From Minisyncoccota bacterium (GTDB lineage Bacteria; Patescibacteriota; Minisyncoccia; 2-02-FULL-40-12; IGHO2-01-FULL-4-A), in NCBI GenBank assembly GCA_036517175.1, contig DATDXQ010000002.1, positions 1-62,164 of the forward strand: a DNA stretch of 62,164 nucleotides, written 5' to 3'. Below are positions 46,574 to 46,639 of this stretch, piece by piece; within the stretch, counting starts at the first letter, position 1, and each line of letters starts with the position of its first letter. The notes below the pieces were generated by a model. It saw nothing but the letters and a program-made list of their open reading frames with translations, made no database searches and was not told where the DNA came from. The position numbers and the translations under genes are program-made.

Positions 46574-46639
46574 AATAACATTGGACCAATTGCCCGCCAG
46601 AGGCGGGTCAGCCTACGGCTGAAGCTAAGGGCGGATTTA
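46574..46639 (-). pseudogene. 5' fragment of a second tRNA-Lys copy carrying the 30-nt double-palindrome 'module U' at position 12/13
   Basis: The minus strand reads AAATCCGCCCTTAGCT, then [TCAGCC-GTA-GGCTGA CCCGCC-TCT-GGCGGG], then CAATTGG.. A 17-nt direct repeat with the real gene occurs at 46555-46571 and 46623-46639. Confidence 0.5.

Follow-up and report, generated by a model that had tools for sequence, protein, structure and literature searches.

Module U and its tRNA stubs

The window analysed here is a stretch of 62,164 nt from a Minisyncoccota bacterium (GenBank assembly GCA_036517175.1, contig DATDXQ010000002.1, forward strand). At three sites it carries a 30-base double palindrome, hereafter module U, defined by the pattern TCAGCC-N3-GGCTGA-CCCRCC-N3-GGYGGG. 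A pattern scan of the window returned three exact matches, all on the minus strand, and no match in 100 dinucleotide-preserving shuffles of the window, even with three mismatches allowed. Each copy is preceded by a 5′ tRNA stub of 12 nt and followed by a small number of tRNA bases with which the D-loop continues. Intact tRNA-Lys, tRNA-Arg and tRNA-Val genes follow on the same strand, 27, 56 and 86 nt downstream respectively. When mapped against the intact tRNA, all three junctions fall between tRNA positions 12 and 13 (12/13). Exact matches and junction mapping thus agree with the initial annotation, which had placed a double palindrome at this position beside these three tRNA genes. The annotation also described an interrupted D-stem. 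The junction itself stands, but the interrupted copies are dead, truncated stubs, and the functional tRNA genes downstream are uninterrupted according to both ARAGORN and Rfam. A reading of the interrupted copies as intron-containing tRNA genes failed: their 3′ part is missing or decayed, no Rfam intron family matches and an intact tRNA adjoins each of them.

On the minus strand the Lys locus reads AAAT-CCGCCCTTAGCT, then U, then CAATTGG. The stub (46623-46639) comprises tRNA nt 1-12 and 5 upstream bases, and is a 17-nt exact direct repeat of 46555-46571 (family D7). The first U copy (46593-46622), TCAGCCGTAGGCTGA followed by CCCGCCTCTGGCGGG, forms two 6-3-6 hairpins. As single-stranded DNA (ssDNA) it is predicted to fold into both at −12.4 kcal/mol (z = −3.9), in line with the two hairpins at −11 to −12 kcal/mol predicted for module U in general. 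The spacer after U (46567-46592) can be read as CAATTGG (tRNA nt 13-19 with one change), TCCAATG and TTATTTATAAAT, the last of which resembles the native upstream flank. It leads into the intact tRNA-Lys(ctt) at 46493-46566 (ARAGORN; Rfam tRNA, 67.6 bits). Within this spacer (46579-46592), TCCAATG is a near reverse complement of the 7 nt preceding it; such a palindromic junction could be left by fold-back repair.

The Arg locus reads GCCTCCGTAGTT, then U, then CAATG. Its stub (51444-51455, minus strand; nt 1-12) is a 12-nt exact repeat (family D16) of 51347-51358, the 5′ end of the intact tRNA-Arg(tcg) at 51286-51358 (ARAGORN, Rfam). The U copy between them (51414-51443), identified by pattern match, sequence reading and ssDNA fold, carries CCCACC/GGTGGG as its second stem, both arms having changed in a compensated manner. 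The loop triplets differ among the three copies. Loop variability and covariation of the second palindrome had both been noted in the initial annotation, and both are borne out.

The Val locus reads GCGCGCTTCGCT (58825-58836, minus strand), then U (58795-58824; same three lines of evidence), then CAGTTGGTTAAGCGACTCGTTTA. The latter opens a decayed pseudo-tRNA-Val continuation (58755-58794) that runs from nt 13 to about nt 45, near the variable region, with an alignment score of 40 from tRNA position 12. The intact tRNA-Val(tac) lies at 58635-58709 (ARAGORN, Rfam). This third U copy is also present in an independent assembly (L198). In two other assemblies of the same organism (L199, L200) the contigs end inside it, at positions equivalent to 58800-58809 of the window; module U breaks metagenome assemblies.

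The genes neighbouring the three loci encode sortase, CAP, DUF11, HAD and RluA proteins; none is a recombinase gene. No Rfam family was assigned to U, to the stubs or to a 136-nt insert described below, at gathering or permissive thresholds, in the window and two further loci. Promoter scans gave nothing usable.

Orthologous sites and the GIY-YIG gene of the window

Judged by the names of its homologues, the window organism belongs with Yanofskybacteria-like Patescibacteria. Six relatives (L201-L206), whose RluA proteins are 65-71% identical to that of the window, were used for comparison. The gene order FtsH...RluA-L19 is found in L201, L202 and L204. In the window, a tRNA-Ile with anticodon UAU (58849-58924, minus strand) stands beside tRNA-Val(tac), and this tRNA-Ile(tat)-tRNA-Val(tac) pair is kept in all six relatives. 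The spacer between the two genes is highly variable. It measures 139 nt in the window and holds the stub and U; it is empty in L204 (6 nt) and L201 (17 nt), contains a hairpin-less 5′ stub in L205 (44 nt) and a 3′ stub of another tRNA-Ile allele in L203 (87 nt), and is filled by other inserts in L202 (155 nt) and L206 (223 nt). Likewise, the orthologous tRNA-Arg(tcg) site of L202 has neither 5′ stub nor U. The Ile-Val spacer and the Arg site thus display the presence/absence polymorphism at the same site that characterizes homing cassettes. Since U is absent from the orthologous sites of relatives, it probably behaves as a mobile or repeat element and not as a conserved regulatory feature. Moreover, the Val stub GCGCGCTTCGCT is closer to the 5′ end of the relatives' tRNA-Val (GGGCGCTTAGCT) than to that of the window's own gene (GGACGGTTAGCT), which is consistent with gene replacement from a donor.

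A nuclease or recombinase accompanying the palindromes had been anticipated, and such a partner does exist at loci of other genomes in the form of a small GIY-YIG nuclease gene (see below). The window itself contains a stand-alone, single-domain GIY-YIG nuclease open reading frame (ORF) of 84 aa (7989-8243, plus strand; Pfam PF01541, E = 2.9e-14). It is preceded at 7961-7982 by a leader resembling a pseudo-tRNA-Val. The last 23 nt of the Val pseudo-tRNA align with this leader at about 20 of 23 positions, with 2 mismatches and 1 gap; the alignment score of 29 compares with a maximum of 21 for shuffled sequences. As judged from this alignment, the leader match is the sole direct trace of a putative former ORF among the window loci. 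The Val spacer was also compared with the region after the GIY-YIG ORF; the similarity was not significant (score 17, shuffles up to 28).

A different insert, of 136 nt, lies immediately after tRNA-Arg(tcg), within 51131-51285 (minus strand). It is strongly structured (RNA fold z = −5.9), and a 19-nt 3′ stub of tRNA-Arg, starting in the T-loop, comes after it. The same layout of tRNA-Arg, insert and 3′ stub occurs in L202 (5578-5740). CCAACTGCTTGG is found both in the first hairpin of the insert and in L202, where it belongs to an insert (2281-2424) that precedes tRNA-Val. A second type of tRNA-gene insert, devoid of an ORF, may be represented here.

Module U and tRNA genes in other genomes

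The pattern was scanned across one genome per bacterial or archaeal species, which gave at least 117 loci (L001-L117). The counts for module U that follow, here and in later sections, hold among the matches listed from this census. An intact tRNA gene is present within 120 nt of 15 of the 114 copies (~13%), whereas such positions make up 2.6% of the bases in the same loci, an enrichment of about 5-fold (p = 3e-7). The remaining copies (~87%) are away from tRNA genes. Where U is embedded in tRNA sequence, this is always an incomplete tRNA copy, and an intact tRNA gene with the same anticodon lies next to it. U may be in either orientation relative to the tRNA, and the stub may lie at the 5′ or the 3′ end of the intact gene.

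Alignment to the intact tRNA located the junctions at a few recurrent positions. Besides the three window loci, 12/13 is used in L029, L055, L096, L068 and L006; 17/18 in L013, L015, L060, L090, L111 and L115; 28/29 in the tRNA-Asn of L045, L052, L103, L071 and L086; and 54-56 in L017, L051, L095 and L108. Positions 8 and 36/37 are further hot spots. The site-specific process suspected in the initial annotation is supported: the placement is not due to chance, and the recurrence of 12/13 in other genomes and tRNA species, including the cassettes L142, L158 and L181 described below, argues for a site- or structure-directed process. The 12/13 junction is, however, only one of several hot spots. 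On the side facing away from the intact gene, the stub is preserved as far as its junction with U; on the near side it matches for only 5-12 nt. This asymmetry is expected if new DNA carrying a replacement tRNA segment is inserted beside the old gene. In L013, L052, L124 and L140, several hairpin modules are piled up in a single stub.

Small GIY-YIG nuclease genes between double hairpins and tRNA genes

In three tRNA-Asn loci (L103, L052 and L045), base-by-base reading showed that the gap between U and the intact tRNA gene is filled by an 82-aa ORF in which Pfam recognizes only GIY-YIG (PF01541). Across the U-selected loci, 11 GIY-YIG ORFs are found no more than 201 nt from U. As a set free of this ascertainment bias, 80 metagenome loci (L118-L197) with 87 genes were chosen by protein similarity alone, the search relying on an alignment of 6 proteins; a 15-protein alignment was too diverse. 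A tRNA gene on the same strand lies within 150 nt of 65 of the 87 genes. GC-rich 6-3-6 hairpins are found within 150 nt of 78, usually as a pair 30-60 nt upstream of the start codon, and hairpins flank the gene on both sides in, for example, L160, L161, L166 and L169. Hairpins of the form NNNGCC-N3-GGCNNN are 43-fold denser near these genes than in the rest of the same loci.

Base pairing in the hairpins was assessed by a covariation test anchored only on the GCC-N3-GGC core, hence non-circular. Three further Watson-Crick pairs flank 127 of 137 cores near the genes, versus 30 of 105 cores elsewhere. Near-gene cores use two to three pair types per position. The stems differ with the nuclease clade: TCAGCC + TCCGCC, TCCGCC + CCAGCC, TGCGCC + CTCGCC, CGCCAC/GTGGCG, GTCGCC or CCCGGC.

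Of the 45 cassettes with a downstream tRNA, 25 have hairpins that abut a 5′ stub of this tRNA. In three of these 25 (L142, L158, L181) the junction is 12/13, which is the layout of the window loci with the ORF still present. The ORF stops inside the tRNA gene in 21 of 46 cases, 16 of which use a TAG at nt 8-10 (e.g. L103:7745-7753, L118:3240-3246). In L103 the ORF runs into tRNA-Asn and ends at this TAG. Thus one DNA segment encodes both the C-terminus of the protein and the 5′ end of the tRNA. Taken in order, the cassette consists of a tRNA promoter, the displaced stub, a double hairpin, a few tRNA bases, a GIY-YIG ORF of 80-95 aa and a complete tRNA gene. The cassette ORFs range from 77 to 95 aa in size, and residues Y6, Y17, R28, H32 and E64 are invariant in 15 proteins. 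The best PDB matches of the cassette nuclease are the UPF0213 proteins 1zg2 and 1ywl (E = 4e-7); NCBIfam gave sub-threshold matches only.

Module U as a dispersed repeat

About half of the U loci (at least 117) carry a Patescibacteria or Candidate Phyla Radiation (CPR) label. The others are labelled Zixibacteria, Omnitrophota, Planctomycetota, Verrucomicrobiota, Elusimicrobiota or Chloroflexi, with some "Proteobacteria" metagenome-assembled genomes (MAGs). Carriage by phages was examined in 2.9 million viral contigs, in which U has no match. The stems are almost invariant and the loops variable. Most copies lie in AT-rich spacers, and no target-site duplication was seen. Flanking bases are biased towards T at −2 and towards purines at +1/+2. 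A third helix closing both hairpins was considered and rejected: flank complementarity is at chance level (9 observed versus 7.9 expected), and for this reason the T/purine bias is read as a target preference. Stem mismatches show no strand asymmetry between G:T and A:C (wobble count 12 versus 7); U may act as RNA hairpins, as ssDNA hairpins or as a palindromic site in double-stranded DNA.

The two loops of U are fully pairable in 48 of 114 copies (shuffle mean 29, maximum 42), an excess confounded by the relatedness of the copies. Such pairing would permit an alternative single 9-bp hairpin, GCC-N3-GGC/GCC-N′3-GGC; the window copies do not have it.

Open frames of 150 aa or more enclose up to 29 copies of U, most commonly read as PP[KE]AGQPxA[DE]. 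One U-bearing frame was confirmed against the PDB as a TatD hydrolase. The window itself contains a sister double palindrome, TCCGCCAAGGGCGGA followed by TCCGCCTCCGACGGA (TCCGCC-N3-GGCGGA twice; 5726-5755, plus strand), in frame in the ORF of a transketolase N-subunit (5300-6226). Relative to PDB 6yak this module is an insertion of exactly 10 residues (SAKGGSASDG region). The TatD insertion is less clean, with a net gain of only 5 residues relative to PDB 1j6o. Because 30 nt correspond to 10 codons, solo modules can be tolerated in frame in protein genes.

In one MAG labelled Pseudomonadota (L003, L021, L023, L028, L056, L066, L074, L080), U occupies the centre of a longer repeat, ...ggatcctt U cgctaataa..tcaggatgaca... 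Module U can evidently form part of a larger repeat resembling a miniature inverted-repeat transposable element.

A cassette that would invade and rebuild tRNA genes

We consider it probable that U is one type of a family of GC-rich double-hairpin repeats that travel with small GIY-YIG genes and invade and rebuild tRNA genes. The unit of this family is NNN-GCC-N3-GGC-N′N′N′, and its hosts are Patescibacteria together with members of some other phyla. T8-A9-G10 of the new tRNA often serves as the stop of the ORF. In this layout, the cassette enters a tRNA gene and brings the rebuilding piece with it, the old piece being left as a stub; the loci show the layout, and the steps that follow are inferred. 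By analogy with the Ssn nucleases discussed below, the hairpins would be recognized by the nuclease. Its cuts in tRNA genes would follow a T and fall at or close to loops of the folded gene (8, 12/13, 17/18, 36/37, 54-56), apart from one more site within the anticodon stem (28/29). Repair of the break from a cassette-bearing allele would amount to homing with co-conversion. The copies in the window are best read as ORF-less relics of such a nuclease/hairpin cassette. All three would derive from cassette events of this kind, and the Val locus would retain leader sequence of the kind that now precedes the GIY-YIG gene of the window. Hairpin modules on their own would also spread to spacers and, in frame, into protein genes.

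Several observations weigh against this interpretation. The Lys and Arg loci bear no trace of a lost ORF, and clustering places the only GIY-YIG gene of the window in a divergent clade without adjacent hairpins. For approximately 90% of U copies, no GIY-YIG gene is present in the nearest 200 nt. Among the 80 protein-selected loci, U is represented by sister types only, such as TCAGCC + TCCGCC, and its exact type (TCAGCC + CCCGCC) is absent. The covariation of hairpin type with nuclease clade could be explained by shared host ancestry, and several of the non-CPR MAG labels may be binning errors. Cleavage, binding and transfer are steps reconstructed by analogy, and the causation could run in the other direction, the hairpins settling in stubs made by the cassette.

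Some of these points would be accommodated if U were an autonomous selfish palindromic repeat, akin to Rickettsia palindromic elements (RPEs), repetitive extragenic palindromes (REPs) or the mitochondrial double-hairpin type, spread by host replication and repair with no part played by the nuclease. Most copies are indeed far from GIY-YIG genes and tRNA genes, some are in frame in protein genes, modules pile up in single stubs (L013, L052, L124, L140), and the window's own GIY-YIG gene has no hairpins. However, the 43-fold enrichment was obtained around genes picked regardless of hairpins, the stem type tracks the nuclease clade, and near-invariant stems with free loops across phyla suggest a protein partner that reads the sequence, as in the Ssn/NTS pair (PMC11893778). 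Accumulation in safe havens would also leave the recurrent, exact tRNA coordinates in non-functional stubs unexplained. We therefore regard this reading as unlikely, and still less probable is a role of the stub and its two hairpins at the RNA level, as a functional leader of the pre-tRNA or 5′ untranslated region of the nuclease mRNA acting in processing or stability, or blocking pairing between stub and tRNA. Such a role would fit the tRNA-sense orientation of all three window copies between an upstream terminator and the tRNA, the position of the cassette hairpins on the coding strand 7-60 nt before the start codon, and an RNA fold of the leader with tRNA-Lys in which the stub is predicted to be able to compete for the 3′ acceptor strand. 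Yet stub and U are not conserved at the orthologous sites of the relatives, both orientations relative to the tRNA occur in other genomes, and most copies are unrelated to tRNA genes, some lying within coding regions. Moreover, G:T is not in excess over A:C among sense-strand mismatches, and no Rfam family matches.

Integrative elements, too, classically duplicate part of a tRNA gene while keeping the gene itself whole, and the initial annotation had proposed a recombinase. The stubs would in that case be attachment-site (att) scars of an element with a tyrosine or serine recombinase and a tRNA gene as attB, and the palindromes would be recombinase sites. Such elements are recognized by direct tRNA repeats bracketing a kb-scale segment with an integrase gene. 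Here the repeats are 27-86 nt apart with no element between them, no recombinase gene flanks the three loci, the partner gene actually found encodes a GIY-YIG nuclease, and stubs occur on the 5′ or 3′ side and at loop positions. The spacing and the gene content exclude an integrase att scar in practice, and we give this reading hardly any credence.

The invasion of tRNA genes by nuclease/hairpin cassettes admits a stronger formulation, which we put forward only tentatively and hold to be less probable than the general interpretation. The clade of ~80-aa GIY-YIG proteins and their cognate hairpins may constitute an undescribed homing system that reads tRNA genes through cloverleaf-like ssDNA, cuts them mostly in or near the loops and drives tRNA alleles. 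Such a system would ride on the tRNA promoter, use U8-A9-G10 of the tRNA as its stop codon and replace part of the tRNA gene by its own copy, across CPR and into other phyla. The 30-nt hairpin module would be mobilized in trans into spacers and in frame into proteins. Full-text literature searches found no description of hairpin/GIY-YIG cassettes that rebuild tRNA genes. The features of the window are ordinary relics; it is the general system that is interesting and testable.

Comparison with known systems

The closest parallel is provided by the Ssn proteins (Chenal et al. 2025, PMC11893778), single-domain GIY-YIG nucleases of 94 aa in Neisseria. Each binds, exclusively in ssDNA form, a hairpin repeat located next to its own gene and cleaves at a distance of a few nt. 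Nucleases of this group measure about 90-100 aa and lack a DNA-binding domain, and their genes are accompanied by hairpin-forming inverted repeats of 20-50 nt. Recognition depends on the sequence of the stem and not of the loop, and the defining activity is cleavage of ssDNA with none on double-stranded DNA or RNA (PMC11893778). Similarly, the cassette nuclease consists of the GIY-YIG domain alone, with Y6, Y17 and E64 at the same positions; its gene is flanked, sometimes on both sides, by hairpin repeats that are also dispersed in the genome, conserved in stem sequence and free in the loops. However, the repeats are here pairs of 6-3-6 hairpins. The published SRM consensus, HGTCWY-N0-2-YYVSBRH-N0-5-WNVSBRG-N0-2-RNCYNB (PMC11893778), fits only 3 of 117 U copies within ±15 nt, whereas the NTS positive control matches. 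The cassettes are embedded in tRNA genes with partial duplication, while the Ssn paper never mentions tRNA (PMC11893778), and the nearest structures are UPF0213 proteins. By analogy, the cassette probably works like an Ssn/SRM pair; given the poor fit to the consensus and the nearest structures, we do not assign it to that group.

Mitochondrial double-hairpin elements (DHEs; Paquin et al. 2000, as summarized in PMC10085805) consist of two adjacent GC-rich hairpins in an AT-rich genome. According to this summary, they occur in spacers and RNA genes and are near-identical across species, so that mobility is suspected (PMC10085805). DHEs are not known to be associated with tRNA stubs or with a stand-alone GIY-YIG protein of 80 aa. 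The likeness is one of layout and not of compared sequence: two hairpins, repeated, in a window of 39% GC. The host, fungal mitochondria, is different, as are sequence and length. In Allomyces, DHEs adjoin the ORF of a mobile endonuclease, which brings a duplicated gene end with it.

RPEs, which PMC1779305 mentions, are palindromes that a bacterium with a small genome carries in RNA genes and, in frame, in protein-coding genes whose products survive the insertion. In-frame palindromic insertion is common to RPEs and U, but RPEs measure ~100-150 bp and are confined to Rickettsia, whereas U has only 30 bp; we know of no nuclease partner for RPEs. REPs and bacterial interspersed mosaic elements, which PMC11893778 discusses, are short extragenic palindromes multiplied with a small RAYT nuclease (IS200/IS605 type) acting on ssDNA hairpins. 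There the enzyme is of the HUH/Y1 type, in contrast to GIY-YIG here, and no rebuilding of tRNA genes is known. SegB is a free-standing GIY-YIG homing endonuclease in the tRNA gene cluster of phage T4 (PMC2330249). Like the cassette nuclease its gene stands among tRNA genes; it cuts tRNA-gene DNA and is inherited with its flanks by gene conversion (PMC2330249). SegB is a phage gene, whereas U is absent from the viral contigs. It is also a larger, multi-domain protein; neither hairpin repeats nor tRNA stubs are known to accompany it.

A study of CPR rRNA genes described GIY-YIG ORFs in rRNA insertions that are not introns, and placed most insertions of all kinds at the tips or bases of stem-loops. 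These rRNA insertions may be the same phenomenon. If tRNA-gene invasion by such cassettes is real, it would explain tRNA-gene fragments, odd spacers and contig breaks in the tiny genomes of CPR, and would link Ssn-type mini-nucleases to the invasion and rebuilding of tRNA genes. It would also provide a bacterial counterpart to the mitochondrial double-hairpin elements and the in-frame palindromes of Rickettsia, and a route for horizontal movement of tRNA alleles between uncultured bacteria. Were the nuclease to read hairpins or cloverleaf ssDNA, it would represent a family of sequence-specific nucleases of very small size, each supplied with its matching recognition module.

Other features of the window

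The window begins with the 3′ end of a 16S rRNA gene (1-193), followed by a free LAGLIDADG endonuclease ORF (498-926). The genes for tRNA-Ile(gat) and tRNA-Ala(tgc) (9759-10150) lie 9.5 kb from the 16S gene, behind protein genes, and the window contains no 23S rRNA gene; the rRNA genes are either unlinked or form a disrupted operon. At 54781-54870 (plus strand), between the ORF at 54107-54781 and tRNA-Phe, stand three copies of TTTGTGGATAAC, a sequence with the DnaA-box core TTATCCACA in its reverse complement. These repeats may be part of a replication origin. Finally, tandem 24-nt repeats (49659-50628, plus strand) lie within the gene of an 888-aa DUF11 surface protein (ORF 48367-51033, minus strand).

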